Of a stretch of DNA of 64,000 nucleotides, positions 24,933 to 51,329 are shown piece by piece (positions within the stretch are counted from its first letter, which is position 1; each line of letters begins with the position of its first letter). The notes below the pieces were generated by a model that did no database searches, had not been told where the DNA came from, and saw only the letters and a program-made list of their open reading frames with translations. This DNA comes from a bacterium (GTDB lineage Bacteria; RBG-13-61-14; DATKZS01). The DNA lies in NCBI GenBank assembly GCA_963674965.2, contig CAXXFL010000001.1:832001-896000 (forward strand), given 5' to 3'. Position numbers and translations under genes: made by a program.

Positions 24933-25664
24933 TTACTCTTTTCTCTCGTAGAGCCTTTGGGCGATAAAGGAAGCGGCCGTCTCGGGCAGGCATCCTTTTC
25001 CGAAGCCGGCGTCAAATCCCATTTCCAGCGCGATTTTATGGGTTATCCGGGGGCCTCCCAGCAGCAAAATAAATCTTCCTTTAAGGCCCATCTTTTCGAT
25101 TTCCTCCTGGAAGTCCCTGAGGTTGACAAGATGCGCGTCCTTTTGGGTCACCGTCTGCGAGACCAGCACCGCGTCGGCCCCCAGCTCGACCGCTTTGTTT
25201 AACAGCTCCCGGTTGGGGACCTGCGCCCCCAGGTTGTGGGCCTCGATCATAGGATACCTCTCGAGGCCGTAATGCCGGTCGTATCCCTTCATGTTCATGA
25301 TGGCGTCGATGCCCACGGTGTGGGCGTCGAACCCCGTGCAGGCCCCTACCACCACCAGCTTCCTTTCGATCTTCTCCTTGATAAAAGCGTTGACCTCGTG
25401 GAAGTCCATGGACCTCTCGTAGAGTCCGGGGTCCATCTCGACCTCGTCCGGGTCTATGCTTACGTTTGTCCATCCATAGGCCACGAACATGGTGAAGCCC
25501 TCCATGAGGGGGGACGCGTGAGCCACCTCGCACGACTCGAATCCCAGCCTTAGCACGTACTCCCTGGCCACCTCCACCGCCTTTCCCGAGGCGTCCAGAG
25601 GAAGAGTAAAGGAGAGCTGGACCGCGCCGTCGTTCAACCTGTCTCCATAGGGTCTTATCAACAT
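24933..25664 (-). CDS. kamE: Lysine 5,6-aminomutase beta subunit (B12-binding)
   Basis: PYGD..NDG.VQLSFTLP dimerisation domain; DAHTVGIDAIMNMKG (B12 His, PLP Lys); SQTVTQ. Confidence 0.95.
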   Translation of the reverse strand: MLIRPYGDRLNDGAVQLSFTLPLDASGKAVEVAREYVLRLGFESCEVAHASPLMEGFTMFVAYGWTNVSIDPDEVEMDPGLYERSMDFHEVNAFIKEKIERKLVVVGACTGFDAHTVGIDAIMNMKGYDRHYGLERYPMIEAHNLGAQVPNRELLNKAVELGADAVLVSQTVTQKDAHLVNLRDFQEEIEKMGLKGRFILLLGGPRITHKIALEMGFDAGFGKGCLPETAASFIAQRLYERKE

Positions 25665-25666
25665 GA

Positions 25667-27262
25667 CTAATCCCCTCCTTTCCCGTCAGCTTGAAACAAC
25701 TCCGACTCGAGGGCGTCCTGTATGGGGTTCCAGTAGTCATCGGCTTTTTCGATCACGCCTTCAAGACCCTTGCCTCCGTCCGGCTTTCTTTTCACGTCGG
25801 CGAACAGGCCCTCCTCGATGGCGGCGAAAAGTCCCGACTCGGCCACCCTCTCGAGGAACTCGGCGGCCATGTCCAAAACCAGGGCCGCTCGTTTCGCGAT
25901 GACGCCGTCCTTTTTATACTCGATCTCGTCACCCAGCGAGGAGGCGGCCTTCATCACCAGCCGCGCGTTGTCAATGGCCAGGAACCTGTCCTGCATAGAC
26001 GGAGTATGGACCGCCTCGGTTAGCATGCCAAGCAGGTGAATCGACTGGCCCGAGATTTTCGAGACGAGGTTGAACATGGAGTTCATGACCAGGCCCCGAA
26101 ACACGTCGCCGGTCATGTGCTTGGTGGGCGGCATATACTTAAGGGGCGACTTGGGAAAAATATCTCTAGCCATCTGGGCCTGGGCCAGCTCGTATAAAAG
26201 TGAGTTCTCGATCTCCGGATTGATCTCGTAGGCGTGGCCGAGGCCGATCAAGGAATGGTCGAGGCCCGCGTCCAGGGCCAGCCTCTCATTGATGAACTGG
26301 GACGCCAGCACCACGTGGGCGGCCTCGAGGGCGTCCGAGGTGGTCAGGTAGTTGTCCTCCCCGGTGTTGATGACCTCACCGGACAGGGCGTTCACCATCC
26401 GGGCGAAATGCTGGTCCACGAAGGTCCGGTAAACGTTTATGTCGCGAAACAGCACGCCGTACATGGCGTCGTTGAGCACCATGTCGAGCCGCTCGAGGGA
26501 GGCCATAACCGCTATCTCGGGCATGCAAAGTCCCGAGCAATAATTGACCAGCCTCACGTATTTCCCGATCTCGTCGCCCGCCTCATCGAGGGCTTGGCGC
26601 ATTACGCGGAAATTCTCCTGGGTGGCGTACGTGCCTCCAAAGCCCTCGGTGGTCGGCCCGTAAGGAACGTAATCCAGAAGGCTCTGGGCCGTGGACCGGA
26701 TGACCGCTATAACGTCCGCCTCCTGCAGCGCGGCGGCCCGGGCCTGTTTGGCGTCCTCGTAAACGTTGCCCGTGGCCACGATCACGTAAAGGAGTGGAGA
26801 GTTCTCCCGCTCCGACCTCTCGCTTATTTTCTTTGCTCGAAAAGCCAAGTTGTCCTTTACCCTCTTGCAATAGGCCCGAGTAAGTTCCCCGGCTTTTCGC
26901 TCGACTCCCGCCTTATCCACTACTCCCGCCCTAGAGAGCTCGTATCCCGAGGCCAGCTTCAGATTCATCTCCTCCACCGTCCATCCGGTCTCAACCAGCG
27001 CTCCGACGTAATACCTGGCGGCCCCTTTTCCCAGCTCGCCTTTGACGCTATCCACGGCCAGGTTGGGCACGGGAACGCCGTCGCCGCTCGCGCCGTCCGC
27101 TCCCAGCGCCCGCAAGGTTGACCGCTCGATGGAAATAGTCGTGTGAATCGATATGTACTCGTGGATGGGCGCGGCGATCCGGCGGGCGCACTCTCTCGCC
27201 CTGGCGATCTTTTCCGCGTCCAGCCCCAGCCTGCCCGCAGCTTCTTGTAATTCCTGACCCAT
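25667..27262 (-). CDS. kamD: Lysine 5,6-aminomutase alpha subunit
   Basis: YVIVATGN, AVIRSTAQSLLDYVPYG, NYCSGLCMPE, YMPPTKHM. Confidence 0.95.
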   Translation of the reverse strand: MGQELQEAAGRLGLDAEKIARARECARRIAAPIHEYISIHTTISIERSTLRALGADGASGDGVPVPNLAVDSVKGELGKGAARYYVGALVETGWTVEEMNLKLASGYELSRAGVVDKAGVERKAGELTRAYCKRVKDNLAFRAKKISERSERENSPLLYVIVATGNVYEDAKQARAAALQEADVIAVIRSTAQSLLDYVPYGPTTEGFGGTYATQENFRVMRQALDEAGDEIGKYVRLVNYCSGLCMPEIAVMASLERLDMVLNDAMYGVLFRDINVYRTFVDQHFARMVNALSGEVINTGEDNYLTTSDALEAAHVVLASQFINERLALDAGLDHSLIGLGHAYEINPEIENSLLYELAQAQMARDIFPKSPLKYMPPTKHMTGDVFRGLVMNSMFNLVSKISGQSIHLLGMLTEAVHTPSMQDRFLAIDNARLVMKAASSLGDEIEYKKDGVIAKRAALVLDMAAEFLERVAESGLFAAIEEGLFADVKRKPDGGKGLEGVIEKADDYWNPIQDALESELFQADGKGGD

Positions 27263-27266
27263 GTTT

Positions 27267-28532
27267 TTATCCTCGCGGTGGATGTCTCCTTTGCAGGCCC
27301 GCCGGCTCGAGCAGGCGCTTGCCGTCGATCAGGCATTTGGCCACCCCGTCCAGCGGCTCGTACAGGGCGTCCCGGCAAAGCTCGCACCAGCACTCGGAGT
27401 AGACGTTCTCGGGCTGGGAATAGCTGGTAATTACTCCCTCGTAGTTGCGGAGCACCACTCGTTTATCGGACCAGGACAGGATGTAGTCCGGCATGAGGGG
27501 AATCTTGCCGCCGCCGCCAGGGGCGTCCACCACGAAGGTGGGCACGGCCATGCCCGTGGTGTGGCCGCGGAGGTTCTCGATGATCTCGATGCCCTTGGCG
27601 ATGGAGGTCCGGAAATGGGAGATGCCCCGTGACAGGTCGCACTGATAGATGTAGTAAGGCTTCACCCGAATGGCCAGAAGGTCCTGCACCAGGCGCTTCA
27701 TGATGCGCGGGCAGTCGTTCACGTCGCGCAGGAGCACGCTCTGGTTCCCCAGCGGAACCCCGCCGTCGGCCAGCATGGCGCAGGCGCGGGCCGACTCCTC
27801 GGTGATCTCCTTGTAATGGTTGAAATGGGTGTTGACGAAAACTGGGTGATGACGCCGGATGGTCTTTACGAGAGACTCCGTTATCCTTTGCGGCATGACC
27901 ACGGGGGTACGCGTGCCTATTCTGACGATCTCGACGTGCTCGATCTTCCTCAACTCGCCCAGTATCCAGTCTATCGCCTCGTCCGACATGACGAGCGGGT
28001 CACCGCCCGAGAGCAGAACGTCCCGCACCTCGGGCGTCTTCCTAATATAATCGAGGCCCGCCTCGAGGGACTCCCTGGTAAGATGGTGGTCCTCGGACCC
28101 GACCAGGCGACGACGCGTGCAATGACGGCAATACATCGAGCAACGATTGGTCACGAGAAACAACACCCGGTCCGGGTACCTGTGAATGACGCCGGGGGCT
28201 GGAGAGTCCAGGTCCTCATGCAGAGGATCGTCCATGTCGTCCTCGTCATAAGCGGTCTCCCTGACGCTGGGGACCGCCTGGAGACGGACGGAGCAAAGTC
28301 TGTATTCTCTGTCCATAAGAGAAGCGTAATAGGGCGTTATGGCCATCCGGAAGCGACCAAGACACTTTTTCACGTCCTCCTTCTCCTTATCGTCAAGCTC
28401 GATGATTTCGCCTAAGGTCTCCACGTCGCGGATGCGGTTTTTAAGCTGCCAATGCCAGTCGTTCCATTCCTCGGGCTTCACGTCACGGTAAGGCGGGAGC
28501 GCCTTGTAATCGACCGATGGAAATTTTTTCAT
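27267..28532 (-). CDS. kamA: L-lysine 2,3-aminomutase (radical SAM/PLP)
   Basis: WNDWHWQ, HRYPDR, CSMYCRHCTRRR, PGGGGKIP, C-terminal Zn Cys (CWCELC). Confidence 0.97.
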   Translation of the reverse strand: MKKFPSVDYKALPPYRDVKPEEWNDWHWQLKNRIRDVETLGEIIELDDKEKEDVKKCLGRFRMAITPYYASLMDREYRLCSVRLQAVPSVRETAYDEDDMDDPLHEDLDSPAPGVIHRYPDRVLFLVTNRCSMYCRHCTRRRLVGSEDHHLTRESLEAGLDYIRKTPEVRDVLLSGGDPLVMSDEAIDWILGELRKIEHVEIVRIGTRTPVVMPQRITESLVKTIRRHHPVFVNTHFNHYKEITEESARACAMLADGGVPLGNQSVLLRDVNDCPRIMKRLVQDLLAIRVKPYYIYQCDLSRGISHFRTSIAKGIEIIENLRGHTTGMAVPTFVVDAPGGGGKIPLMPDYILSWSDKRVVLRNYEGVITSYSQPENVYSECWCELCRDALYEPLDGVAKCLIDGKRLLEPAGLQRRHPPRG

Positions 28533-28533
28533 C

Positions 28534-29598
28534 TCATCCTCCCTTGCCGCCGGTAAAGGACTCGATAAGATCGAGAACTTCGGGAGATCTCCGGACCAGC
28601 TCGAGCGCGTACTCGGCGTGACCTCTCGCGTACCCGTTGCCGATGATCATGTTCACGTCCTTGCCGACGCCCTCCGCTCCGAGGGCGGCCCTGGTAAAGG
28701 ACGTGGCCATGCCGAAGAAATAGATAGTTCCCCCCTCACGGCACGACAGCACCGAGGCCATTTCCGTGTCCGGCGAATTGACGCAATTGATTACCAGGTC
28801 CGCCATCTTGCCGTCCGTTAGCCTCTCAACCTCTGAGTGACAAAACAGTGGATCGGCCGCGTCCACGATGGAGTATTCGTCGATCAGCCCGGCATTTTTC
28901 AGGCGCTCTAGCTTTTTCCCTGACCTCGAGAAGCCGATCACGAAGCCGTCTTTCTCCATCACGTTTTTGGCCACCCTCGAGCAAAGAACGCCCGATTTGC
29001 CCGAGGCCCCGAGGATCAGGACCGTCATGCCCTTTCGCGCCAGCCGACTCGTCTGGATGGGCGCGCCGCACACGTCGAGCACGGACAGGGCCGCCCGCTC
29101 GGGAATATCCTCGGGTAGCCCGGCGATGACCCCGCTCTGGAAAATAATCGCGTGGCCCTCAACCTGTACCTGATCGGAATTGGTATCCACGTTCAGGATG
29201 GCGTCAATCTTCAGTGGCGTCAGGGACAGAGAAACCAGACTCGCCACTTTATCCCCATCCTTCACGCCGCGATCGGGCGCCGCGCTTCCGATTTGGACCA
29301 CCTCTCCCATCAGCATCCCGCCCGAGCCGGTGACGGGGTTTTGCAGCTTTCCCCTTTGCCCGACTATCTCGAGTATGGTTTGCTTTATCTTCTCGACGTC
29401 GCCGCCGGCTTGTTTATGAATCTGGGCGAAGCTGGCCGAGTCCACGTTCAAGGTGCTGACCTTTATCATGGTCTCGCCGGCCCAGACGCGGCTCATGTCA
29501 TTATCCAGCTTGAGCGCGGGCTGGGGCAGCGATCCCTTCGGCTCGACGACCCGATGCGACCCGTAAGGACAGCCGCCTGAAATTTCCTTGACCCTCAT
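28534..29598 (-). CDS. kdd: L-erythro-3,5-diaminohexanoate dehydrogenase
   Basis: GCPYGSHRV, LNVDSASF, QNPVTGSGGM, SLVSLSLTP, LGAEGVGKD; context. Confidence 0.95.
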   Translation of the reverse strand: MRVKEISGGCPYGSHRVVEPKGSLPQPALKLDNDMSRVWAGETMIKVSTLNVDSASFAQIHKQAGGDVEKIKQTILEIVGQRGKLQNPVTGSGGMLMGEVVQIGSAAPDRGVKDGDKVASLVSLSLTPLKIDAILNVDTNSDQVQVEGHAIIFQSGVIAGLPEDIPERAALSVLDVCGAPIQTSRLARKGMTVLILGASGKSGVLCSRVAKNVMEKDGFVIGFSRSGKKLERLKNAGLIDEYSIVDAADPLFCHSEVERLTDGKMADLVINCVNSPDTEMASVLSCREGGTIYFFGMATSFTRAALGAEGVGKDVNMIIGNGYARGHAEYALELVRRSPEVLDLIESFTGGKGG

Positions 29599-30431
29599 TT
29601 CACTTTACTCCTTGCCTTGCAAAGGCCCAGCGCCTCGCGCGTTTCGCGCGGCGTGGCTATTTCGAAACCAAGCTCGCGAGTCACCCTGGCGGCCCGTTCC
29701 ACGAGCTGGGCATTGTCGCGAGCCAGGGTCTTGGGCGCGTAGTAAACGTTGTCCTCGAAGCCGGTCCGGATATTGCCTCCGCCCGCCAGCGCCCCGGCCA
29801 GGGCCGATATCGAGCCTCTTCCCCCGATACCGATGGCGGTCCATAACGAGCCCGGCGGCAACCTGTCAACCATGGCGGCCAAGCTGGAAAGACTCGCGTC
29901 AAGGCCGCCCGGGACCCCCAGCACCAGGCCATAATAATAAGGCCCCTCCACCAGTCCCTCCCGGATGAGGACCTTCGAGGCCTCGAGGTGGGAAAGGTCG
30001 AAACACTCGAGGGTCGGCTTTATTCCCTTTTCCTTCATCTCCGCCGCCGCCCTTCTCATCATGGGAAGAGTGTTGACGATGTAGTCGTCGCCGAAGTTGA
30101 CGGTCCCGCAGTCAAGGGACGCCATCTCGGGATGGAGCTTAAGAGGAGCCAGCCGCTCCTCCAGGCTCATGCCGACCGCGCCGCCGGTGGTCACCTCGAT
30201 GACGGCGTCGCACTCGGCCTCAATCATCCCGATGGCGCGGCGGAAGGTATCCGCGTCCTGCGTGGGTCGGCCCTTTTCATCCCTGACATGGAGATGGATT
30301 ATCGAGGCCCCGGCCGCGCAGGCGTCAGCCGAGGCTCGGGCTATCTCCTCGGGAGTGACGGGCAGGGCCGGGTTTTGCTCGGTCGTGGTTTCCGCTCCCG
30401 TTACGGCGCAGGTGATGATTATTTTTTTCAT
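29595..30431 (-). CDS. kce: 3-keto-5-aminohexanoate cleavage enzyme (BKACE)
   Basis: IITCAVTGAE, IHLHVRD, TGG, CGTVNFG, RTGFEDN; ATGA coupling to kdd. Confidence 0.92.
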   Translation of the reverse strand: MKKIIITCAVTGAETTTEQNPALPVTPEEIARASADACAAGASIIHLHVRDEKGRPTQDADTFRRAIGMIEAECDAVIEVTTGGAVGMSLEERLAPLKLHPEMASLDCGTVNFGDDYIVNTLPMMRRAAAEMKEKGIKPTLECFDLSHLEASKVLIREGLVEGPYYYGLVLGVPGGLDASLSSLAAMVDRLPPGSLWTAIGIGGRGSISALAGALAGGGNIRTGFEDNVYYAPKTLARDNAQLVERAARVTRELGFEIATPRETREALGLCKARSKVK

Positions 30432-30500
30432 GTTTCCTCCCTTGTCGGCCGGCGGTTGATTATTATTTTCGGTATCGCGTCGCCGTCCCGCCCAAGCAAT

Positions 30501-30549
30501 TAGTAACCACTCAAGTAGCTACTATATAGCAAATCCTATCGGGCGTCAA
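30501..30549 (-). promoter_or_regulatory. Putative promoter of the kce-kamE operon with overlapping 24-bp palindromic operator
   Basis: Minus strand TTGACG (30549-30544)-17 bp-TATAGT (30526-30521); palindrome TAGTAACCAC-TCAA-GTAGCTACTA at 30501-30524. Confidence 0.7.
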
Positions 30550-30644
30550 GATAATTTTTAAGGCGAGCGATATTTTTCTTTCTTTGCAAATTACCGATAT
30601 ATAAGGCTAATCGCCTTAATCACGACGGAGCGGCTCGTTTTTTC

Positions 30645-30694
30645 TTGCCTTTTCAAAATTTCTCGTGCTATAGTGGCTACGATGGAAGTCACTA
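30645..30694 (+). promoter_or_regulatory. Putative promoter of the TrmB-family operon with overlapping 24-bp palindromic operator
   Basis: TTGCCT-18 bp-TATAGT with TG extension; palindrome TAGTGGCTAC-GATG-GAAGTCACTA at 30671-30694. Confidence 0.7.
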
Positions 30695-30705
30695 AGGGAG
30701 CATAA

Positions 30706-31542
30706 ATGGACGACTCGTTAAAATCGCTCACCGCCATCGGCTTCAGCGAGTATGAGGCCAAGGCCTACGGCGCCCTGTTGGTCGAGTCTCCGGCCAACGG
30801 TTACCAGATATCCAAGCTCAGCGGGGTCCCCCGCGCCAAGATATACGAGTGCCTCGAGCGGCTGGCCATGCGGGGGGCCGTGGTGAGAGTCGACTCGCCC
30901 GACCCCGAGGCCCGGCTCTACGCTCCCACCGACCCCAACGAGCTTATCCGCGACATGGAGAAGAACCTGGGGTCCGCCCTCGAGCGGGCCCGGGAGAGCC
31001 TAAACAAGTTAAAGAGCGACCCGAGCGTGGTCGAGGTCCTCTGGCGCGTCACCTCCCAGCGTGACCTGGTGGCCAAGGGAAGGACCCTGACCGGCGAGGC
31101 CCGGCGGACCTTGCACGTGGCCCTGTGGGACGAGGAGTTCGACTCCCTCCTTCCCGACCTCGAAAGAGCGGCGGAAAGGGGCCTTAAAATGGCGCTGGTC
31201 CTGTACGGAAAACACGCGGGACTGCAAAGGCTCCAGGATTACGGGGTGGGCGCCATACTTCACGGCCGCGTGAAAAGGCAGGCCATCCCGGTGATGGGCC
31301 GCCAGTTCGCGCTTGTGTCCGACGGGGAGCGCTGCATAACCGGGTCGATTTTCGAGGACGACAAGGTGGAGGGCGTCTTCACCATGAACAAGGGCCTGGT
31401 GACCAACGCGGTCGATCTGGTAAACCACGAGATATATCTCGAGCGGATTATCCTGGCCGAGGGGGACGTCATCCTCAAGAGATTCGGCAAAAACCTCCAG
31501 CGCCTTGACGCCTTCGACTCGCCTTTCAAGGACGTTAAATAA
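30706..31542 (+). CDS. TrmB-family transcriptional regulator
   Basis: GFSEYEAKAY.ALL...NGYQISKLSGVPRAKIYE wHTH; C-terminal effector domain ending LVNHEIY. Confidence 0.9.
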   Translation: MDDSLKSLTAIGFSEYEAKAYGALLVESPANGYQISKLSGVPRAKIYECLERLAMRGAVVRVDSPDPEARLYAPTDPNELIRDMEKNLGSALERARESLNKLKSDPSVVEVLWRVTSQRDLVAKGRTLTGEARRTLHVALWDEEFDSLLPDLERAAERGLKMALVLYGKHAGLQRLQDYGVGAILHGRVKRQAIPVMGRQFALVSDGERCITGSIFEDDKVEGVFTMNKGLVTNAVDLVNHEIYLERIILAEGDVILKRFGKNLQRLDAFDSPFKDVK

Positions 31543-31589
31543 CTCGCCCTCTTGGGGGCTCATTCTATTAAGACGATGGGGAGGACTTC

Positions 31590-32792
31590 ATGACGGATAG
31601 CAATAACTCGGCCGGACCCAGGGTAATAAAAATCGAAATGACGCCGGTCCACGTTCCCTTCCGCGAGATCGTGCGGGAGACCATGCAGGCGGGCCCGGGC
31701 GGCCTGGGCATGATGATACCCAGCGAGGAGCCCTGGCTGGGAGGAGACTTCGTCATCTGCCGTCTCGAGGCGGAGGACGGGAGCGTGGGCCTGGGCGAGG
31801 CCTTCGTCTGGCTGGCCGAGACGGGCATATCGCCGGACCAGGTTATTGACGGGGCGGCGGGCGCCTTAAGCGGTTACGTGCTTAGCCAGAGCCCGTTCAA
31901 CGTCGAGGCCATCAGGCAAAGGATGGACGCCAACGTGACCCGCACCGAGGTGGCCAAGGGCATGCTCGATATGGCGCTCTACGACCTGATGGGCCGGATC
32001 ACTAAAAGGTCGGCCTGCGAGTTCATGGGCGGGATGACGGTGAGCGAGGTCCCCCTTTGCGCCATGGTTCCACTTATGGCGGTGGACTCCATGGTCTACT
32101 TCGCCAAGGCTTTTCACGATAGCGGCTTTCGTTCCATCCGTGTGAAGCTGGGCAAGAGCGTGACGGAGGACGTCAAGATCATCGGCGCCATGAGGGAGGA
32201 GTTGGGCTACTCGGTCCGAATAAGGGTCGACTACAACCAGGCCTATTCCCCGGCCCAGGCGGTAAGGGCCATCAAGGCCATCGAGCCCTTCGCCATAGAC
32301 TGCGCCGAGCAGCCGGTACGGGCGGCCGACTTCGTGGGCATGGCCTACGTGCAAAAAAGGGTGGACACGCCCCTCTTCGCGCATGAGGGCCAGTTCTCGA
32401 TCACCGACATAACCTCCCTGATCGAAATGGGGGCCATCGAGGTAGTGGGAATAAACGCGGAAAGACCGGGCGGCGTGACCAACGCCCTCCGCGCCATCAA
32501 CTACGCGGAGATGAAAGGGCTCGGGTCCCTCATCCATAACCAGTCGCTGGGGATCGGGTCGGCCATGCAGATTCATCTGGCCGCGGCCAAGCATTTCTCT
32601 CTTGGACACGACACCGACCTTTTCGGGCACGTCATGATGGAGCACGACCTTTTGACTCAGCCGATCGACTACGACAAGGGAACGGCCGCCGTGCCAACGG
32701 GTCCCGGCTGGGGCGTCGAGTTGGATATGGACGCCCTCGATAAGTACGCCGCCGGGCCTACGGTCAAGGTCGAGGCGAAAAAGACCGCCTGA
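31590..32792 (+). CDS. Enolase-superfamily (mandelate racemase/muconate-lactonizing) enzyme, non-canonical active site
   Basis: GLGEA, DMALYDL capping domain; RVK, DYNQ, EQP, AHE, PTGPGWGV. Confidence 0.85.
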   Translation: MTDSNNSAGPRVIKIEMTPVHVPFREIVRETMQAGPGGLGMMIPSEEPWLGGDFVICRLEAEDGSVGLGEAFVWLAETGISPDQVIDGAAGALSGYVLSQSPFNVEAIRQRMDANVTRTEVAKGMLDMALYDLMGRITKRSACEFMGGMTVSEVPLCAMVPLMAVDSMVYFAKAFHDSGFRSIRVKLGKSVTEDVKIIGAMREELGYSVRIRVDYNQAYSPAQAVRAIKAIEPFAIDCAEQPVRAADFVGMAYVQKRVDTPLFAHEGQFSITDITSLIEMGAIEVVGINAERPGGVTNALRAINYAEMKGLGSLIHNQSLGIGSAMQIHLAAAKHFSLGHDTDLFGHVMMEHDLLTQPIDYDKGTAAVPTGPGWGVELDMDALDKYAAGPTVKVEAKKTA

Positions 32793-32832
32793 AATGGCGA
32801 GTCCCGTTCTTTCCGTAAGCGGTATTCGATAA

Positions 32833-34302
32833 ATGGGTCCCATCGGAGTTTACGACGTAATAATAATAGCGGCCTACCTGGGCGCCATGCTGGGCGTGGG
32901 CATATGGTCGTCCCGCAAGATCAAGGACCTTACCGACTTCGCCCTGGCCGGCAAATCACTCGGATACCCGGTCATGATCGGGACCCTGGTGGGAGCTGCC
33001 ATTGGCGCGGCGTCCACCTTCGGCAAGGCGGGCAAGGCCTACCACGTGGGTTCCTTTTTCTTCCTCGCCACAATGGGATACGCCATCGGCCTGGCACTGT
33101 TCGGCGTATTCTCCAGGCGCCTGCGCCGGGCCGGTATCTGGACCATACCCGACGCCATCCGCGCCCGCTACGGCAAGGGCATGGAGATCATTATGGGGGC
33201 CGTCATGCTGGTGGCCGTAATAGCCGTTTTCGGCGGCCAGATAATCGGCATGGGCGCCATTTTCTCGTCCATAGGCGGAACATACGGTCTGACTTACAAG
33301 TCCTCGATAATAATCGCCGGGGCGGTGATCGTGTTCTACACCCTGGTGGGAGGCCTTTTCGCGGTGGCCTATACGGACCTCATCCAGTCGGCCATCATGC
33401 TCGTGGGAATAGGCATCATCCTGCCGGTGGCCGTGACCTCCAAGGCAGTCGAGGCCGGAATAGTCTGGGACGCCTTAATCCCCGAGCCGGGCAACCTGCT
33501 GGGAGGAATGACGCCCCTTTACGTCGTCTCCATTTTCCTCATCGACGTTCCCTTTTGCCTGGTCGATCCCAGCCTCTGGCAAAGGGCCAACGCGGCCAGG
33601 ACCGGCCGGGTGGCCCAGAGGTCGGCCTTCGTCACCAGCGGCGTCTATATCTGGTGGTCCTTTATCTGCGTGCTCCTGGGCGTTCTGGGAGCGGCGCTTA
33701 TACCGGACGTCTCAGAGCGGCTGGGAAGCTCGGACGCCGTCATCCCGGCCCTCACCATTAAATACCTGCCGCCCGCGGCCGTGGGGCTTTGCCTTAGCGG
33801 ACTTATGGCCGTCATGATGAGCACGGCCTCGGTGGTTCTCCTTATTACCGGCACCACCTTGTCCAACGACCTGGTCAAGCCGCTCCGGCCTGAGATCAGC
33901 GAAAAGGGACTTTTAATCTCCGCTCGGGTCACGGTCCTTATCGTGGGAATCCTGGGCATTATCTTCGCCCTTTTCGCCAAGAATATTTTCGATCTGCTGC
34001 TCTTGGCATTCGCCATCTATATCTCCGGCGTTTTCTTTCCCACCATGGCCGCTCTATATTGGGATAAGGCCACGAAGACGGGCGCGGCCGTGAGCGCCGT
34101 GGCCGCCACGCTTACCGTGTCCGCCCTCTACGGACTCAAGGAGTTCGGCGTGCCGATGCCCTTTGGAGTCGAGCCCATCATGATAAGTCTTATCGTCAGC
34201 TTTGTCTCGATGTACGCGGTGAGCGTCATGACGTACGACCCTGAAAAAGCCACGCCGAAAATTTTCGGCGATAGCTTCCAAAAGAAAGGAGACGCCGAGT
34301 AA
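32833..34302 (+). CDS. Sodium:solute symporter family protein
   Basis: DFALAGKSL, YTLVGGLFAVAYTDLIQ, WQRANAA, AVMMST; many TM helices. Confidence 0.92.
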   Translation: MGPIGVYDVIIIAAYLGAMLGVGIWSSRKIKDLTDFALAGKSLGYPVMIGTLVGAAIGAASTFGKAGKAYHVGSFFFLATMGYAIGLALFGVFSRRLRRAGIWTIPDAIRARYGKGMEIIMGAVMLVAVIAVFGGQIIGMGAIFSSIGGTYGLTYKSSIIIAGAVIVFYTLVGGLFAVAYTDLIQSAIMLVGIGIILPVAVTSKAVEAGIVWDALIPEPGNLLGGMTPLYVVSIFLIDVPFCLVDPSLWQRANAARTGRVAQRSAFVTSGVYIWWSFICVLLGVLGAALIPDVSERLGSSDAVIPALTIKYLPPAAVGLCLSGLMAVMMSTASVVLLITGTTLSNDLVKPLRPEISEKGLLISARVTVLIVGILGIIFALFAKNIFDLLLLAFAIYISGVFFPTMAALYWDKATKTGAAVSAVAATLTVSALYGLKEFGVPMPFGVEPIMISLIVSFVSMYAVSVMTYDPEKATPKIFGDSFQKKGDAE

Positions 34303-35459
34303 TGTCCGAGAAAAACAGGGACCTCACTCTTTTAGAGGCGTCATCCATCGTGGCCGGCCTGGGCCTGGGCGGCGGGGTGATGGGCGTTCCCTATTTAGCC
34401 TCGATGAACGGCCTGGCCCAGGTCCTTAGCCTCATGGCGGTCGCCTACGGCGCCAGCGTTCTTCTCCACTTGATGGTGGCCGAGATGGTTGTTCGGGACG
34501 GCGAGGACCTGCAACTGGTCGAGATTTTCGGGAAGTACCTTTTTAGGGGGAAGGCGGGGGTCCTCTTCACCTGGTCGTTCTTCGGGCTGGTAGCGGTCTC
34601 GTTCTACGGTCTCTTGGCGGCTTATATTACGGGCTGCGGAGAAATACTCACGGAGCTGACCGGGCTAAACCTGATATTGTCCGAGCTTGTAACCTACGCC
34701 GTTGCCGCGGGAGTCGTCTTCTTTGGGCTCAAGGCGGTGGGATTCATCGAGAAGTACGCCATGATAGGCATCTTTCTTCTGGTCCTTGCCCTTTGCGTCG
34801 CCTCGCTTGGAGGGACGCTGAACGCCATCCCCTCGATTAAGGGCGGCGTGAAGGAAGGCCTTGCCCTTTTCGGCATGGTCATGTTCAGCTTCTCCTGTTT
34901 CTTCAGCGTGCCCCAGGCCGTGGCCGGTTTAAAGCACGATCGGCGTCTTATTCCGGGAGCGGTGATACTCGGGATCAGCATCAACTTCGCCCTGGTCCTT
35001 GTCGTCACGCTGGCGGCTATTTACGTCTCGAAAGAGGTTACCAAGATAGCCATCATCGGATGGGGTGAAGCATTGGGAGAGTGGGCCTCGGTGACCGGCT
35101 CGATATTCGTTTCTCTCGCCATGCTTACCACTTTCTGGGCCGTGTCCTACGCCCTGGCCGTCATCGCCAAGGAGCGGCTCGGATGGGGGGACAGGCGATC
35201 ATGGCTGGCGGCCACCTTGCCATCCTTAATAGTCGCCATGATCGGCCTGACGGATTTTCTCGGATACCTCCGCCTGGTGGGAGGCGCCATGGCCATAATG
35301 GTCGCCCTCCTGGTCGTGCCCGTCTTGAGAAAGACCCGGAGGCTGAATCCGGACAACCTCGATTACGACATGGGCTTCTTCGGACAAACGCCCTTCCAGG
35401 CGCTGGTCATACTGGCATACGTGCTCATGGCCATCGGCTCGGTCGTGACTATCGAATAA
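34302..35459 (+). CDS. Amino acid permease (TyrP/HAAAP-like)
   Basis: EASSIVAG..LGGGVMGVPY TM1 motif; ~11 hydrophobic helices. Confidence 0.8.
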   Translation: MSEKNRDLTLLEASSIVAGLGLGGGVMGVPYLASMNGLAQVLSLMAVAYGASVLLHLMVAEMVVRDGEDLQLVEIFGKYLFRGKAGVLFTWSFFGLVAVSFYGLLAAYITGCGEILTELTGLNLILSELVTYAVAAGVVFFGLKAVGFIEKYAMIGIFLLVLALCVASLGGTLNAIPSIKGGVKEGLALFGMVMFSFSCFFSVPQAVAGLKHDRRLIPGAVILGISINFALVLVVTLAAIYVSKEVTKIAIIGWGEALGEWASVTGSIFVSLAMLTTFWAVSYALAVIAKERLGWGDRRSWLAATLPSLIVAMIGLTDFLGYLRLVGGAMAIMVALLVVPVLRKTRRLNPDNLDYDMGFFGQTPFQALVILAYVLMAIGSVVTIE

Positions 35460-35488
35460 AGGACAAGGGAAAGCAAAAGGAACAAATC

Positions 35489-37090
35489 ATGGACGAAGAA
35501 AACCTTTTAATTCACGGCGGCGAGATAATAACCATGGATGAGTCCGCCCCCTCGGCCGAGGCGGTCGCGGTTCAAAAGGGGACCATCGCCCGCGTCGGCT
35601 CGGCCAAGGATTGCCGTGAGGCTCTCGGCGCCGACTTCGAGGACATAGACCTCGAGGGACGAGTGCTGGCGCCGGGATTCATCGACACGCACCTTCATCC
35701 AGTGTTGATGGTCTACTTCGATCTAAACGTGGACTTGCGCGGCATTAAGAGCATGGGAGAACTGAAAGACAGGATTCGAAAAATGGCCGACTCCGATCCC
35801 TCGGCTCAGTGGATCGTGGGTCTCCAGTTCGACGAGCAGGAACTCGAGACCCCGAGACTGCCCGACCGCCGCGACCTGGACGAGGCCTGCTCCGACCGCC
35901 CTGTCGTCGTGATCAAGCATGACGGCCACATGGTGATAACCAATACCAGGGCCATCGAGGCCTGCGAGGTGGGGCCGGAAACGTTCGACCCGGAGGGCGG
36001 CGTGATCGAGCGGGAAAAGGACGGCGGGGCGAACGGGCAGTTCCGCGAGACGGCCATGATGATCCCGCTAAATAAGATGCCCCTGCCGGACCTGGACAAA
36101 TTGACCGCCGGCGCGAGAAAGACCTTTCTCAAGCTGGCGGCTTCAGGCATTACCTCGGTAGGGTCCGTGCTCCAGACCGGGGAGGAGGGACCGGCCGGGT
36201 CGTCGGGCAAGTTCGACGTTCTGGCCATGCAGATGCTTCTGACTCAAATCCCCATCAGCATGTATACGTTGCTTATAGCGGACGACGTCGCCAAGATCGG
36301 CGAGGTCAAAAAGACGGGCCTAGAATCGGGAGTACCCGGCGGTCACAAGATAGGGGGGATCAAGATTTTCTCGGACGGTTCCTTCGGCGCCTGCACCGCC
36401 TGCATGAGGGACCCATACTCGGACCAGCCGGATAAAAGCGGTTTTTTGGTTCGATCGGAGGAGGACATTTTCTCGAGGATGGCCGCCGCCCATCAGGCCG
36501 GATACCAGATCGCGACCCACGCCATCGGCGACAAGGCCAACCGCGTATGTATCGACCTTTATAAGAGACTGCTGAAGGAGATGCCAAGAGCGGACCATCG
36601 CCACCGCCTCGAGCACGCGTCGCTCCTTGACGCGGACATGATTAAGGACATGGCCCGGCTGGGACTTATCGTCTCGAGCCAGCCCCAGTTCATCCACTCG
36701 GAGAAACACTGGCTTCATAAACGGCTGGGACCTGAAAGGGCCAAATGGACCTATCCCTTCAGGTCGCTCGTTGCGGGCGGCGTAAAGGTGGCCGGGGCCT
36801 CGGACGCTCCGGTCGAGTCGGTGGACGTTTTGGACTCGATATACGTTTTAGCCACGCGGGAGGGCTTCGAGACGCGCCAGTGCATATCCGCGGCCGACGC
36901 CATGCGGATGTTTACCATTGACGCCGCCTACGCCCAGTTCGAGGACAAGGTGAAAGGCAGCATCAGCCAGGGCAAAAGGGCGGACATGATTATCCTCTCG
37001 GAGAATCCCATCACCTCGGCGCTCGATAAAATCCGCGGGATCAGGGTCTTGCGGACCTTCCACGGCGGAAAAACCATTTACGGGGAGTGA
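35489..37090 (+). CDS. YtcJ-like amidohydrolase (Amidohydro_3)
   Basis: PGFIDTHLH, KIFSDGS, HAIGD, RLEHA, ASDAPV, GKRAD; ATG at 35489. Confidence 0.9.
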   Translation: MDEENLLIHGGEIITMDESAPSAEAVAVQKGTIARVGSAKDCREALGADFEDIDLEGRVLAPGFIDTHLHPVLMVYFDLNVDLRGIKSMGELKDRIRKMADSDPSAQWIVGLQFDEQELETPRLPDRRDLDEACSDRPVVVIKHDGHMVITNTRAIEACEVGPETFDPEGGVIEREKDGGANGQFRETAMMIPLNKMPLPDLDKLTAGARKTFLKLAASGITSVGSVLQTGEEGPAGSSGKFDVLAMQMLLTQIPISMYTLLIADDVAKIGEVKKTGLESGVPGGHKIGGIKIFSDGSFGACTACMRDPYSDQPDKSGFLVRSEEDIFSRMAAAHQAGYQIATHAIGDKANRVCIDLYKRLLKEMPRADHRHRLEHASLLDADMIKDMARLGLIVSSQPQFIHSEKHWLHKRLGPERAKWTYPFRSLVAGGVKVAGASDAPVESVDVLDSIYVLATREGFETRQCISAADAMRMFTIDAAYAQFEDKVKGSISQGKRADMIILSENPITSALDKIRGIRVLRTFHGGKTIYGE

Positions 37091-38163
37091 GCCTGATGTC
37101 GGAACACGCGCTCCCCCTATTCAAGGCCTTTCCCAAGCTGGGGCAAAGGGCGCCTTACCTTTGGCTGGATACCGAGGTTACGCCCGTCCAAAGGCTTGCC
37201 GGCGTTTGGCCAGGAGGCCTTTACGTTAAAAGAGACGACCTCGTCTCCAAGGCCTTCGGGGGCAACAAGGTCAGGAAGCTCGAGTTCGCCCTGGCCGACG
37301 CCATAAAACAAGGAAAGACCAAAGTCGCGACCATGGGCGGGATCGGGACAAACCACGGCCTGGCCACGGCCATCTTCGCGAAAAAGCTCGGCCTCGATTG
37401 CGACCTTTACCTTTTTCCCCAGTTCGTGACCGAGTACGCGCGAGAGAACCTGAAGCTCATGCACTATTACGGCGCCCGGCTGATCCTGGCGGAAAACATG
37501 GCCGCCATGGGCGTCCGCTATTACCTTGCCGGCCTGATTGATCGAAGCGCCTATTTCATCTACGCCGGTGGCAGCTCGCCGCTCAGCACGCTGGGACTGG
37601 TGAACGCCGCGTTCGAGTTGAAGGCCCAGATCGAGGCCGGCCAGGCGCCCGAGCCCGGATACATCTTTTGTCCGACGGCCTCGAACGGGACCCTGGCCGG
37701 ATTAAGTCTTGGCGTCCAGTTGTCCGGCCTCAAGTCCAAGGTCGTGGGCGTCAGGGTGGGCGCGGCCAAAATGGGGCCGCTACATCTCAATACCATGAAG
37801 ACGGTAAAGTCCATGCAAAGGAAAACTCTCGAGCTGATGAATAGGCTGGACCCGAGCGTTCCGAAAATCGAGGCCAGGCCGCCGCGTCTTCTTGATGAAT
37901 ACATCGGTGAAGGGTATGGCTTCCCGACCGAGGAGGGCAACCGGGCCCTCGCGCGGTTCCGGGACAAGGGAGAGATATATCTCGAGCCGGTTTACACGGC
38001 CAAGACCTGCGCCGCCCTACTCGACTTTATCGATATTGAAAACGGGAAGGCGGGTCCATATTTGTACTGGCAGACCAACAGCTCGGCCGACCTTGCGGCC
38101 GAGGCGGCTAGCGTCGATTACATGAGCATGCCAAGGGAGTTCCACAAGTTCTTTAAGGGCTGA
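37087..38163 (+). CDS. PLP enzyme of the D-cysteine desulfhydrase/ACC deaminase family
   Basis: [17 protein letters not shown] (PLP Lys), SNGT, GYG.PT, EPVYTAK. Confidence 0.88.
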
Positions 38164-38183
38164 GCTTCCCAGGGAGGAAGGAC

Positions 38184-38576
38184 ATGGAAGAAAGGATCGA
38201 GTCGGTAATAAGGCTACGGATGAGTTACGCCGACGCCCATTACGGGGGTGATTTAGTGGACGGCGCCAAGATGCTGGCCCTTTTCGGCGACGTGGCCACG
38301 GAGCTTTTGATACGTCTTGACGGGGACGAGGGTCTTTTTCTTCGCTACGATGAAGTCGAGTTCAAGGCCCCGGTCTACGCGGGCGACTATATCGAGGCCC
38401 GGGGATGGATCACGGACGTGGGCAAGACCTCGCGCAAGATGGAGTTCGAGGCTTTCAAGGTAATAACGGCCCGGCGAGACATATCTTCCACGGCGGCCGA
38501 CGCCCTTCCCGAGCCGGTCCTGGTCACGAGGGCCAAGGGAGTTTGCGTCACGCCTAAAGAACTGCAGAGAAAATAA
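38184..38576 (+). CDS. kal: 3-aminobutyryl-CoA ammonia-lyase (hotdog fold)
   Basis: [43 protein letters not shown]; lysine-fermentation context. Confidence 0.93.
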
Positions 38577-38749: not shown

Positions 38750-39349
38750 ATGAGTGAAGAAAAATCTGAAGACCGGGCCGGCCCAGTTCCCCGCGAGGAA
38801 CTGGTGGGAGAGCGGATCAAATTGATCCGGTACCGGCCGGAGCACGTGGAGGGCGTTTACGAGATTGTAATGGAGTCCCAGGCCGAGCTGATCGAGTGGA
38901 CGTCCTGGTGCCATCCCGATTACTCGATCGATGAAACTCGGGATTTCGCGGCCAGGCGCGAGGAGGAATGGCAAAATGGAAAGTCATATATTTTCCTCAT
39001 GCTGGACCGCAAAACGGGAGACCCCCTCGGGACCTGCGGCCTGGCGAGCGTGGACCCCGTAAACAAGCTGGCCAACCTGGGCTACTGGGTTCGGACCAGC
39101 AGGACGGGGGAGGGCATAGCCCCCGAGGCGTCACGGTTACTTCTGGACTTCGCCTTTAGCGACGCCGGGCTTGTCAGGGTCGAGATACTGGCCTCGGCTG
39201 CCAACGCCCGTAGTCTCCGGGTTATCGGGAAAATCGGGGCCGTGAAAGAGGGCGTGCTGAGGAAAAGGCTTTTCCTTAACGGCCGGAGCCACGACGCGGT
39301 CATGCACTCGGTGACGATAGACGATAAGGCGCCGGGAAAATTTGGATAA
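38750..39349 (+). CDS. RimJ/RimL-family GNAT N-acetyltransferase
   Basis: ANLGYWV, G.GIA, N.RS.RV..KIG...EG.LR. Confidence 0.88.
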   Translation: MSEEKSEDRAGPVPREELVGERIKLIRYRPEHVEGVYEIVMESQAELIEWTSWCHPDYSIDETRDFAARREEEWQNGKSYIFLMLDRKTGDPLGTCGLASVDPVNKLANLGYWVRTSRTGEGIAPEASRLLLDFAFSDAGLVRVEILASAANARSLRVIGKIGAVKEGVLRKRLFLNGRSHDAVMHSVTIDDKAPGKFG

Positions 39350-40088
39350 TCGGACCACCATATACGACGACCCGGGACACTACGACGCCAAGTACGAGAC
39401 CTACCTGGACGACGTGCCCTACCTTTACGGCCAGGTCCTCGAGTTCGGCGACCCGGTCCTCGAGATAGGATGCGGCACCGGCCGGATAACCATTCCCCTG
39501 GCCAGGCAAGGCGTGAAAATTACCGGCATAGACGCCTGTGCGGCCATGCTGGCCGAGTGCGCGAGAAAAGCCAGGGAAGAGGGACTCGAGGTCCGTCTTC
39601 ATGAGGCCGACTGCCGAGGTTTCAAGCTCCGGCAAAGATTCCGCTTTATTTTTATTCCTTTTAACACTTTTTCTCATCTCACGAAGCGAGTTGACGCTGA
39701 GGCCTGCCTGGCCCGGGCGCGGGAGCACCTGGGCGAGGACGGGCGGCTTTTGATCGATCTTTTCAACCCGAGCCTTTCCGACCTCCTGGCCGAGGAGGAA
39801 ACCATCGCCATGTACCCGGACCCGGAGGACGGCAAAAAGGTAATCGTGCGGGAGCGAAACAAGTACGACGACAAGGACCAGGTCAACCGCGTAACCTGGC
39901 GTCACGTTTTCAAAAGCGGCAAACCCGACATGGTTCAGACCCTGGTCCAGCGCGTGTATTTCCCACTCGAGCTCGAGGCCCTGCTCCATTATAACGGATT
40001 CAAGATCGAGACTCGTCACGGCGATTACAACGGCGCGCCTTTTACCTCGGGATCGCCCAAGCAGCTCATAATCGCTCGCGTAAGATAA
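39342..40088 (+). CDS. Class I SAM-dependent methyltransferase
   Basis: VLEIGCGTGRI, GID, HLGEDG.L. Confidence 0.88.
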   Translation: MDNRTTIYDDPGHYDAKYETYLDDVPYLYGQVLEFGDPVLEIGCGTGRITIPLARQGVKITGIDACAAMLAECARKAREEGLEVRLHEADCRGFKLRQRFRFIFIPFNTFSHLTKRVDAEACLARAREHLGEDGRLLIDLFNPSLSDLLAEEETIAMYPDPEDGKKVIVRERNKYDDKDQVNRVTWRHVFKSGKPDMVQTLVQRVYFPLELEALLHYNGFKIETRHGDYNGAPFTSGSPKQLIIARVR

Positions 40089-49310: not shown

Positions 49311-50204
49311 GTGGAGGAACTTACCAGAATAATCAAAACCTATTCCGACCAGATAATTAATTGGTCCCTTGCCCACGGGGCCAGGGTCGCGCTGATCCTT
49401 GTCATCTTTCTGGGGCTCTTTTTTCTTCTCCGCTTCGCCCTTCGCCGGTTCATCCGCTTTTACCTTAAAAAGGAAGACGACGTGGAAAAGGAGAAACGGG
49501 TCCAGACCCTCACCAACGTCATTTCCTTTACGGGGGGGTTCCTGCTCATCTGCACCGGCGCGATGATGGTGGTGGCCGAGCTTGGCATCGACGTCAAGCC
49601 CTTATTGGCCTCCCTCGGGATCGGGGGCCTGGCCATCGGCTTTGGCGGCCAGAGCCTGGTCAAGGACGTCATCTCGGGTTTCTTCATGCTCCTCGAGGAC
49701 CAGGTCCGTGTAAACGACGTGGTGGAGGCCGCCGGCAAGTCGGGCCAGGTCGAGTCGGTCGGTCTTCGCACCCTGGTGCTGAGGGACTTGGCCGGCAACC
49801 GGATCATCATTCCCAACGGCGAGATAAAGGGCATTACCAACATGACCTACGAGTACTCCCGTTACGTGTTCAAAATCGGCGTGGCATACAAGGAGGACGT
49901 GGGCAAGGTCGTCGATCTAATGAAGCGAGTGGGAGAAGAGTTGGCCCGGGACAAGGACTTCGGTTCCCTGATCAAGGAGCCCCTCGAGATATTCGGCCTT
50001 GACGAGTTCTCCGACTCCTCGATGGTGATCCTGGCCCGGATCACCACTCTTCCCATCCAGCAATGGGCCGTGGGCCGGGAATACAAAAAGCGCCTGAAGC
50101 AAACCTTCGACGCCGAGGGAATCGAGATACCCTATCCTCACCGCAAGATATTCATGGAGATGGAGTCCTGGGAAAGGTCGCGAAAGGTCTCGTCGGACTC
50201 GTAA
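49311..50204 (+). CDS. Small-conductance mechanosensitive channel (MscS family)
   Basis: GLAIGFGGQSLVKDVISGFF, G.VE.VGLR, IPNG, GIEIPYP. Confidence 0.93.
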   Translation: MEELTRIIKTYSDQIINWSLAHGARVALILVIFLGLFFLLRFALRRFIRFYLKKEDDVEKEKRVQTLTNVISFTGGFLLICTGAMMVVAELGIDVKPLLASLGIGGLAIGFGGQSLVKDVISGFFMLLEDQVRVNDVVEAAGKSGQVESVGLRTLVLRDLAGNRIIIPNGEIKGITNMTYEYSRYVFKIGVAYKEDVGKVVDLMKRVGEELARDKDFGSLIKEPLEIFGLDEFSDSSMVILARITTLPIQQWAVGREYKKRLKQTFDAEGIEIPYPHRKIFMEMESWERSRKVSSDS

Positions 50205-51302: not shown

Positions 51303-51329
51303 AGGACACTTGCAAAGGGGGGAGGGCTG

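Follow-up and report, generated by a model that had tools for sequence, protein, structure and literature searches.

An enolase-superfamily and amidohydrolase cassette between a TrmB-type regulator and kal, and its recurrent linkage to lysine fermentation genes

Why should a gene of lysine fermentation be the last in an operon of genes that the pathway does not need? The question is raised by a locus at positions 24933-38576 of a 64,000-nt stretch of bacterial DNA (contig CAXXFL010000001.1, positions 832,001 to 896,000, assembly GCA_963674965.2). We call the whole of this stretch the window, and positions are given in its numbering. On the minus strand kce-kdd-kamA-kamD-kamE diverges from a plus-strand operon that begins with the gene of a TrmB-family transcription regulator (trmB) and ends with kal. 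Between these two lie genes for an enolase-superfamily enzyme, a transporter of the sodium:solute symporter (SSS) family, a permease, a YtcJ-like amidohydrolase and a pyridoxal 5'-phosphate (PLP) enzyme. KamA, KamDE, Kdd, Kce and Kal suffice to turn lysine into crotonyl-CoA and acetoacetate. The route as set out in the legend to Fig. 1 of PMC3149608 needs none of the extra enzymes, just as an earlier sequence-only reading of this DNA had said. That reading proposed that the extra genes import a modified lysine and release lysine or beta-lysine from it.

We argue that the five genes are a cassette in their own right, and that gene context makes it likely that this cassette is functionally coupled to lysine fermentation. 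The coupling is well supported because the linkage recurs and because the same predicted TrmB operator serves both gene sets. What the cassette contributes to the pathway is a separate matter, on which we can only be tentative.

Recurrent linkage and a common regulator

Metagenome contigs were scanned with an alignment of three TrmB orthologs, which gave 21 loci. (Related loci carry L-numbers below, and genomes that hold the amidohydrolase carry G-numbers.) The TrmB orthologs, at 55-68% identity, adjoin lysine fermentation genes in 13 of these loci. In five of the remaining eight the contig extends no more than 360 nt upstream of trmB, so that any divergent genes would be off it. The extra genes join the lysine genes in three architectures. 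The first is divergent, as in the window. In L063, from an Actinomycetota bin, kamE-kamD-kamA-kdd lies opposite trmB-enolase-amidohydrolase-kal. L113 has the same order plus kce; its amidohydrolase frame (12103-13728) holds one stop, which may be a sequencing error or the mark of a decaying gene. The second is convergent or adjoins kamA-kdd: amidohydrolase-kal converges on kamE-kamD-kamA-kdd in L115, and the amidohydrolase converges on kamA-kdd in L112, L116 and L119. The third is found in L120, where the PLP gene stands immediately before kal. There is also a trmB-enolase pair in L105. Every linked cluster has kept kamA. By pairwise identity there are at least four linked lineages besides that of the window: L063; L113; L112 with L115, L116 and L119; and L120 with L106, L107 and L114. 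TrmB is 59-70% identical between linked lineages. A search of gene neighbourhoods, which the sequence-only reading had named as its first check, therefore bears out the tie to lysine genes, with linked homologs in L063, L113, L115, L112, L116, L119 and L120.

The linked amidohydrolases are not a single clade. In the amidohydrolase tree the window copy groups with the unlinked L039 and L023-L026. L063 and L113 fall in a seven-row set with unlinked Actinomycetota copies (96% by the Shimodaira-Hasegawa-like approximate likelihood ratio test, SH-aLRT). The third linked group (L112, L115, L116 and L119) is a clade of its own. That the six linked amidohydrolases form one clade is rejected by an approximately unbiased (AU) test (p 0.009, log-likelihood difference 84); the group tested was named after the first tree had been inspected, though it is defined by gene context.

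The other line of reasoning is the operator. TrmB (30706-31542, plus strand) is a member of its family by both of its domains, the winged helix (PF01978, 67.5 bits) and the sensor (PF11495, 25.6 bits), each of which scores over its cut-off. The predicted operator is a 24-bp palindrome with the consensus TAGTAAC-N10-GTTACTA, and the 274-nt region between the divergent genes holds two copies of it along with one sigma-70-like site on each strand. Site 1 (TAGTAAC-N10-GCTACTA, 30501-30524, one mismatch) is the conserved motif. It shares positions with the -10 and the start region of a promoter-like site on the minus strand (30549-30521). Site 2 (TAGTGGC-N10-GTCACTA, 30671-30694, three mismatches) overlaps the plus-strand site of the trmB operon (TTGCCT-18-TATAGT with a TG, 30645-30674) in the same way, at its -10 hexamer and start region. 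The promoter-like sites are consensus matches only, since a scan of the region gave 5 sites where shuffled sequence is expected to give 5.1. A scan of the genome for the palindrome, at no more than one mismatch per half-site and a spacing of 9-14 nt, gave ten matches, and site 1 is the only one of them with the 10-nt spacing that the related loci conserve.

Of 23 related loci, 17 have the motif upstream of trmB (L063, L103, L113 and 14 others), and L063 and L103 have a second operator-like site in the equivalent position. In 1.24 Mb of amidohydrolase loci used as a control the motif (at most two mismatches) occurs only in L044 and L063, which are the two that have trmB. L044, from Geothermincola, has a perfect site before trmB-EamA-enolase-amidohydrolase, and neither Kal nor KamD was found in that genome. 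The operator thus stands before the cassette in L044 and before lysine genes elsewhere. This implies that one type of TrmB regulator governs both gene sets, jointly or separately, as far as can be judged from the sites. We argue that in the window it is probably a repressor of both divergent operons, and that the palindrome is the predicted operator of a lysine-pathway regulator that has not been described before.

Perfect copies of the operator are also found before a class-III aminotransferase gene beside a trmB ortholog in L108 (5716-5739) and L109 (1142-1165), and in L111 the TrmB ortholog adjoins a gene of the same class. Kat of the variant lysine pathway (PMC3149608) belongs to this aminotransferase family. 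These loci may be the regulon of a Kat-type variant of lysine fermentation. The archaeal TrmB proteins that sense sugars have in common with the window protein the DNA-binding domain at the N terminus and a part of the sensor domain at the C terminus. The window protein scores 55.3 bits against a cut-off of 600 for those equivalogs, its orthologs adjoin lysine fermentation genes instead of sugar genes, and the operator TAGTAAC-N10-GTTACTA is unlike theirs.

It is worth considering the layout of the window itself. Gene identities were judged by NCBIfam equivalog cut-offs and Pfam domain scans. Four of the minus-strand proteins exceed the curated cut-offs. These are KamE, a subunit of lysine 5,6-aminomutase (24933-25664; NF052385, 331.6 bits against 280; PF16554 and PF02310), KamD, the alpha subunit of the same enzyme (25667-27262; NF052384, 766.5 bits against 600; PF09043), KamA, the radical SAM lysine 2,3-aminomutase (27267-28532; TIGR03820, 616.8 bits against 525.4), and Kdd, the L-erythro-3,5-diaminohexanoate dehydrogenase (28534-29598; NF052381, 247.6 bits against 200). 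So does Kal, the 3-aminobutyryl-CoA ammonia-lyase, on the plus strand (38184-38576; NF052388, 187 bits against 160). Kce (29595-30431, minus strand; PF05853, the BKACE domain, 334 bits) has NF052387 as its best family but falls under the cut-off (353.1 against 382 bits); its place next to kdd fits. An open reading frame (ORF) map and the family scans put all twelve genes at the coordinates, in the order and on the strands that the sequence-only reading had given. It was also right about the dense packing of the plus strand, where the gaps from trmB to kal stay between -4 and 47 nt (47, 40, -1, 29, -4 and 20 nt). kal is the final gene of the run, followed by a gap of 173 nt, and its match is the only one in the whole genome (6.5 Mb in 7 contigs). 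The enolase and the amidohydrolase of the cassette also have one copy each in the genome. A promoter of its own for kal would have spoken against coupling, and the promoter scan found no sigma-70-like site before kal, which lies only 20 nt from the PLP gene. Recurrent linkage, the common operator and the lack of a promoter-like site at kal together uphold the claim that the function of the extra genes is bound up with the lysine pathway.

The clusters of Fusobacterium nucleatum and Clostridium sticklandii have the same six enzyme families as the window (kamA, kamDE, kdd, kce and kal). Unlike them, the window has its genes in two divergent operons with a TrmB-family regulator, and its kal is set apart behind five extra genes. 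Unlike L106, it has no gene for a KamB-type reactivase between kamD and kamA. It must be noted that KamA-family matches of about 490 bits with one in-frame TAG or TGA occur in G060, G064, G065, G071, G074 and other genomes, which are of spirochaete type and hold the amidohydrolase. The interruption could mean two separate genes, a break or a recoded codon.

The cassette and its enzymes

The distribution of the cassette was examined from the amidohydrolase outwards. A protein search over 8000 candidates found 1157 proteins at E <= 0.001; the 120 best relatives listed are 55-65% identical over nearly their full length. When one genome of each species was scanned, 414 amidohydrolase relatives were confirmed among 513 matched stretches. 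The best 80 of these were retained as loci, and the cassette genes in each were counted by tblastn. By record title 15 belong to archaea, of Asgard type and others, and 65 are bacterial contigs, among them Deltaproteobacteria, Myxococcota, Spirochaetota, Bacillota, Actinomycetota, Chloroflexota, Bdellovibrionota and Binatota. An enolase ortholog is present in 42 of the 80 loci, every one of them bacterial, and lies immediately upstream of the amidohydrolase (within 150 nt) in 29. Of the bacterial loci, 56 have 1.3 kb or more upstream, and the ortholog is present in 40 of these. The permease is found in 30 loci, and the SSS symporter and the PLP gene in 7 each. The core of the cassette is the enolase-type enzyme followed by the amidohydrolase. 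The sequence-only reading had taken the three extra enzymes as equal partners, and these counts do not agree with it. The complete order enolase-SSS-permease-amidohydrolase-PLP is found in L048 and L055, both Bacteriovoracaceae contigs, without lysine genes. One genome of the window's own class has permease-amidohydrolase-PLP amid unrelated genes. Since the order of the cassette recurs without lysine genes, the plus-strand operon is best read as trmB, a pre-existing cassette of five genes, and kal.

The enolase-type enzyme (31590-32792, plus strand) has the Pfam domains MR_MLE_N and MR_MLE_C and is a divergent member of its superfamily. Its best solved match by sequence is 2p88, the N-succinyl-Arg/Lys racemase of Bacillus cereus (E 2.1e-40). 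This is also the top Foldseek match of its structure model (TMq 0.86 at 26% identity, with a predicted local distance difference test score, pLDDT, of 90.1). Its nearest structural relatives include dipeptide epimerases and N-acylamino-acid racemases. The catalytic residues are another matter. The beta2 lysine is there: it is K186, which closes strand 182-186, is unchanged across 23 of 23 sequences and corresponds to K163 of 2p88 in the alignment. The beta6 lysine is not: the residue that aligns with K267 of 2p88 is an invariant asparagine, N289, at the end of strand 285-289. R292, three residues past that position, is common to both proteins. The metal ligands are not the usual Asp/Glu/Asp set. 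D214 and E240 are kept, and at the third position stands H265, which is invariant and followed by E266 on beta5. H316, at the end of beta7, is invariant in all 23 aligned orthologs. The racemases in the subgroup of muconate-lactonizing enzyme (MLE), 2p88 among them, and the dipeptide epimerases share with the window enzyme the beta2 lysine and the equivalents of D214, E240 and R292, whereas the racemases have a beta6 lysine for Asn289 and an aspartate for His265 as third ligand. The pair of a beta2 lysine and a beta7 histidine presumably resembles the arrangement of the mandelate racemase subgroup. It is possible that the enzyme is a racemase, or else a one-base lyase or dehydratase. D341-x-D343 was considered as an ammonium-binding motif like that of dipeptide epimerases and was dropped, as the family consensus there is A-x-E. 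The N-acyl racemases of the MLE subgroup pair with an M20 hydrolase and a GCN5-related N-acetyltransferase (GNAT). The partner of the window enzyme is a YtcJ amidohydrolase.

Some of the related loci have other genes near the regulator. A gene like UxaA and galactarate dehydratase, without the SAF domain, lies beside trmB in L106, L107, L114-L116, L118 and L119. L116 (7144-8379) and L118 (2448-3923) have a LarA-like nickel-pincer 2-hydroxyacid racemase beside trmB, in the place of the enolase-type gene. These genes may be stand-ins for the enolase or mere neighbours.

The amidohydrolase (35489-37090, plus strand) starts at the ATG at 35489, whereas the longest ORF would begin with a GTG further upstream (35081); its orthologs have 531-545 residues. 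It belongs to the YtcJ-like amidohydrolases. PF07969 (Amidohydro_3, 299.6 bits) covers it from model position 3 to 472 of 472, and orthologs are named "predicted amidohydrolase YtcJ" in their source records. An alignment of 25 sequences has H68, H70, K292, H344, H372/H376 and D439 invariant. This set has the pattern of the ligands of the binuclear isoaspartyl dipeptidase, including its carboxylated lysine, as described in the relevant part of PMC11511702. The structure model (pLDDT 90.2) has 3igh and 3icj as its best folds. By sequence or by fold, the only near structures are these two uncharacterised Pyrococcus proteins.

The characterised aminoacylases of the YtcJ-like family, in the parts of PMC10699109 and PMC11511702 that treat them, are the epsilon-lysine acylases (ELAs) of Streptomyces (EC 3.5.1.17; SmELA, ScELA, SamELA and SgELA). 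SmELA is classed there as a YtcJ-like amidohydrolase, and SgELA is described as hydrolysing only N-epsilon-acetyl-L-lysine and not N-alpha-acetyl-lysine (PMC10699109). The window enzyme is like the ELAs in size (about 55-61 kDa). The ligands given for SgELA in a section of the same paper (H76, H78, H330, H365 and D431) are spaced like H68, H70, H344, H372/H376 and D439 of the window. The portion of this literature covered by PMC10699109 mentions no connection of ELAs with lysine fermentation.

The remaining three proteins of the cassette can be named only broadly. The SSS symporter (32833-34302, plus strand; PF00474, the SSF domain, 132.6 bits) has PutP and PanF as its nearest NCBIfam models, at about 127 bits and far under their cut-offs. 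The permease (34302-35459, plus strand) is a distant relative of the hydroxy/aromatic amino-acid permeases, with a weak match to PF03222 (Trp_Tyr_perm, 27.2 bits). The PLP enzyme (37087-38163, plus strand; PF00291, the PALP domain, 121.6 bits) is a relative of D-cysteine desulfhydrase, 1-aminocyclopropane-1-carboxylate (ACC) deaminase and cysteate sulfo-lyase. It scores below every family cut-off (TIGR01275, 156.9 against 289.4 bits; CuyA, 153.1 against 450; DcyD, 126.2 against 429). Its PDB matches, 4d97 and 1j0a, are related to it by fold and family, and it stands outside the curated subgroups. A lookup in the ESM Atlas returned generic family names only.

A candidate mechanism and its rivals

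Sequence analysis shows which genes are present, that the cassette is conserved, that it is repeatedly linked to lysine genes and that both gene sets have a common operator. We argue that the most economical one is that the cassette imports a lysine conjugate and deacylates it to L-lysine, which is then fermented. It fits the precedent of the ELAs, the resemblance of the enolase to an Arg/Lys racemase and the presence of kamA in every linked cluster. For the chain as a whole we stop short of calling it probable. The locus would be one regulon, in which a TrmB-family repressor would bind the 24-bp palindrome at both divergent promoters. The kce-kdd-kamA-kamD-kamE operon and kal would carry out the canonical conversion of lysine to crotonyl-CoA and acetoacetate, and a self-contained, widespread cassette would have been placed between trmB and kal. 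Its transporters would import an N-acylated lysine conjugate, which might be an N-epsilon-acyl, isopeptide or N-alpha-acyl lysine. The enolase-type enzyme would abstract the proton adjoining the carboxylate of the conjugate or of its acid part, with the result that the centre is inverted or a beta-substituent is eliminated. The binuclear amidohydrolase would cleave the amide and release free L-lysine for KamA. Where the PLP enzyme is present it would deaminate the other fragment. In genomes that do not ferment lysine the released lysine would simply be assimilated. The order of these steps, lysine as the product and the nature of the acyl group are what we infer here. The retention of kamA is expected if alpha-lysine is what the cassette delivers. 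As for the N-epsilon-acyl- or formyl-lysine suggested by the sequence-only reading, it gains indirect support by analogy, as the aminoacylases of the YtcJ-like family covered in PMC10699109 are epsilon-lysine acylases.

A good deal weighs against this chain, and it has to be set out. In the linkage argument, several of the linked contigs from metagenomes are closely related among themselves. The amidohydrolase tree has a poorly resolved backbone, so that branches with SH-aLRT of at least 95% force only 2 changes of linkage state. No lysine riboswitch was found in 11 cassette loci (128 kb) or in positions 20000-46000 of the window. (A cyclic di-GMP-I riboswitch of 67.7 bits does lie about 2.3 kb upstream of the cassette in L036, a Bacillota contig, at 4758-4847.) The margin of 2p88 over muconate-lactonizing enzymes, dipeptide epimerases and other structures of MLE type is small. 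The racemase analogy may be wrong, because the enolase lacks the beta6 lysine of the two-base racemases of the MLE subgroup, a residue that bioRxiv 10.1101/2022.03.03.481873 calls a hallmark of that subgroup in the part that concerns it. The amidohydrolase has no close relative among characterised enzymes. ELAs are reported, in the portion of PMC11511702 on them, to do without a carboxylated lysine, whereas K292 is invariant in the window family. Among the 301 Actinomycetota genomes compared, ten of them unpublished, an ortholog at 55-57% identity occurs in 4, none of which belongs to those ten, and all other matches are at most 36% identical, so any relation of the window enzyme to the ELAs is, on sequence, a distant one. 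The ELAs were looked for more directly among ten YtcJ-paralog regions from seven large Actinomycetota genomes of high G+C. An ELA-like C-terminal motif, taken from published primers, was not found in five such genomes. In the nine large Actinomycetota genomes of high G+C (at least 7.5 Mb) with a match, the best YtcJ paralogs are 28-32% identical to the window enzyme.

Lysine genes are present in only one of the 80 amidohydrolase-centred loci, L063. In a census of 50 amidohydrolase-holding genomes, with 28 other loci of the first list outside it, Kal is over its cut-off in 7, KamD in 8 and KamA in 6. A further 28 of the 50 have KamA-family matches under the cut-off that cannot be assigned. Neither Kal nor KamD was found in G041-G050, which hold the ten most similar amidohydrolase copies. 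Since most genomes with the amidohydrolase do not have lysine fermentation genes, the cassette has a role that is independent of lysine fermentation. It is not specific to lysine fermenters.

One can imagine from this a scenario where the cassette is an independent catabolic module for a derivative of some amino acid other than lysine, and where growth on necromass or peptides explains the common regulator. Its substrate could be an N-acyl-D-amino acid, or a cell-wall dipeptide whose D-residue is deaminated by the PLP enzyme. The 43 of 50 genomes without Kal over the cut-off and the 79 of 80 loci without lysine genes speak for it, and so does the cassette in contigs labelled Bacteriovoracaceae and Myxococcota. 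The enzymes suit it too. The PLP family is named for D-cysteine, ACC and cysteate, the permease is closest to those for hydroxy and aromatic amino acids, and the closest structural kin of the enolase include dipeptide epimerases and N-acylamino-acid racemases. However, the placement of genes between trmB and kal recurs where TrmB is only 59-70% identical and in differing architectures, and one operator serves the cassette in L044 and the lysine genes elsewhere. The rejected monophyly of the linked amidohydrolases is also hard to explain without selection for linkage. We therefore consider an unrelated module unlikely, though it has to be kept in mind.

Another scenario places the amidohydrolase and the enolase within the pathway. 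Their task would be to mend or divert a side product or isomer, such as a lactam or the wrong stereoisomer of diamino- or amino-keto-hexanoate, or to serve a D-lysine branch, and the carbon would still reach Kal. Some amidohydrolases of the isoaspartyl dipeptidase type open cyclic amides. The invariant HxH, K, H, H, D set of the window has the ligand pattern given for the binuclear isoaspartyl dipeptidase (PMC11511702). The amidohydrolase is the most consistent neighbour of kal or kamA, and in L063, L113 and L115 it lies beside kal with no transporter in the locus. However, most of the genomes that hold the cassette have no KamD or Kal, and the cassette is often joined to the permease (30 of 80 loci), which suggests that the substrate is imported. 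The canonical pathway also runs without enzymes of this kind, both in vitro and in known fermenters, by the account in the relevant part of PMC3149608. A role in repair is quite unlikely on this evidence.

The sequence-only reading had a further candidate in N-epsilon-acetyl-beta-lysine, an osmolyte that the cassette would degrade so that free beta-lysine enters at KamDE. Methanogens of sediments and digesters make this compound (PMC12776343), and by their record titles several related contigs come from metagenome bins of sediment or digesters. YtcJ-like ELAs cleave N-epsilon-acetyl groups (PMC10699109, in part) and the pathway accepts beta-lysine directly (PMC3149608, in part). Nevertheless, the compound fits poorly. 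All linked clusters keep kamA, down to the minimal amidohydrolase-kamA-kdd. KamD is missing in 42 of the 50 genomes and KamA over the cut-off in 44, so most genomes with the amidohydrolase have no means to use beta-lysine, and its release would lead nowhere in them. Nor would a role for the enolase as an epimerase make sense, since the carbon that adjoins the carboxylate of beta-lysine is not a stereocentre. We find this scenario improbable. Mere chance adjacency, with the cassette inserted into a mobile lysine cluster or carried along with it, is highly improbable: the genomes of the nearest relatives have the cassette but no lysine genes, which makes it probable that one part or the other was acquired, and the lysine genes are more alike across phyla (kal 72-87%) than the cassette genes are (amidohydrolase 49-64% between lineages), but the gene order repeats in L063 and L113, other linked orders are found in L115, L112, L116, L119 and L120, the spacing is tight with no promoter-like site before kal, and the operator is common to both gene sets.

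We return to the import and deacylation of a lysine conjugate and to what it would mean. Lysine fermentation is one route to butyrate and ammonia in anoxic habitats and guts. To our knowledge, little is known of what feeds it beyond free lysine and fructoselysine. The fructoselysine route of Intestinimonas is said to use a kinase and a deglycase on the Amadori product, not an amidohydrolase and an enolase-type enzyme. It is a precedent in kind all the same, since a modified lysine feeds lysine fermentation: strain AF211 takes fructoselysine to lysine and on to butyrate in one organism, as stated in part of PMC4697335. The locus is a candidate for a further feed, by way of a conserved enzyme pair tied to the pathway by synteny and a common regulator. 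In the literature searched, with most subscription journals outside its scope, nothing was found that ties lysine fermentation genes to TrmB, to an amidohydrolase or to an enzyme of mandelate racemase type.

One can go further and suppose that the enolase and amidohydrolase pair frees lysine from an abundant natural conjugate that has not been recognised, by an enolase reaction new to the superfamily, and that fermenters have repeatedly wired the cassette into the TrmB regulon. We regard this as doubtful speculation. Cell walls or damaged proteins might supply such a conjugate, for example as an N-epsilon-(2-hydroxyacyl), an N-epsilon-aminoacyl or another isopeptide lysine. The catalytic residues of this enolase branch are unlike those of its nearest subgroup, so that a new reaction is plausible. 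Whatever the substrate, the locus offers a predicted operator and repressor for lysine fermentation genes, and a first physiological context for a large and almost uncharacterised family of YtcJ amidohydrolases.

Neighbouring genes and related loci

In the spirochaete loci L034, L047, L054 and L056 a BKACE paralog, 38-42% identical to Kce, lies about 8 kb from the amidohydrolase. Upstream in the same loci are a cupin, an IclR regulator, a PAS histidine kinase, a Gfo/Idh/MocA-SCP2 oxidoreductase and a protein like ADP-forming acyl-CoA synthetases. Related spirochaete loci often have a second Amidohydro_1 gene downstream of the cassette.

After kal the window has a RimL-like GNAT acetyltransferase and a methyltransferase (38750-40088). 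The best model of the latter is of a daptide-type ribosomally synthesized and post-translationally modified peptide (RiPP) system, at 103.7 bits against a cut-off of 175. Neither gene recurs in 101 related loci. An ORF of 1701 aa follows at 40233-45338. Further on, positions 50001-54000 have a G+C content of 0.45-0.49, against about 0.60 elsewhere in the window, and may be foreign DNA.

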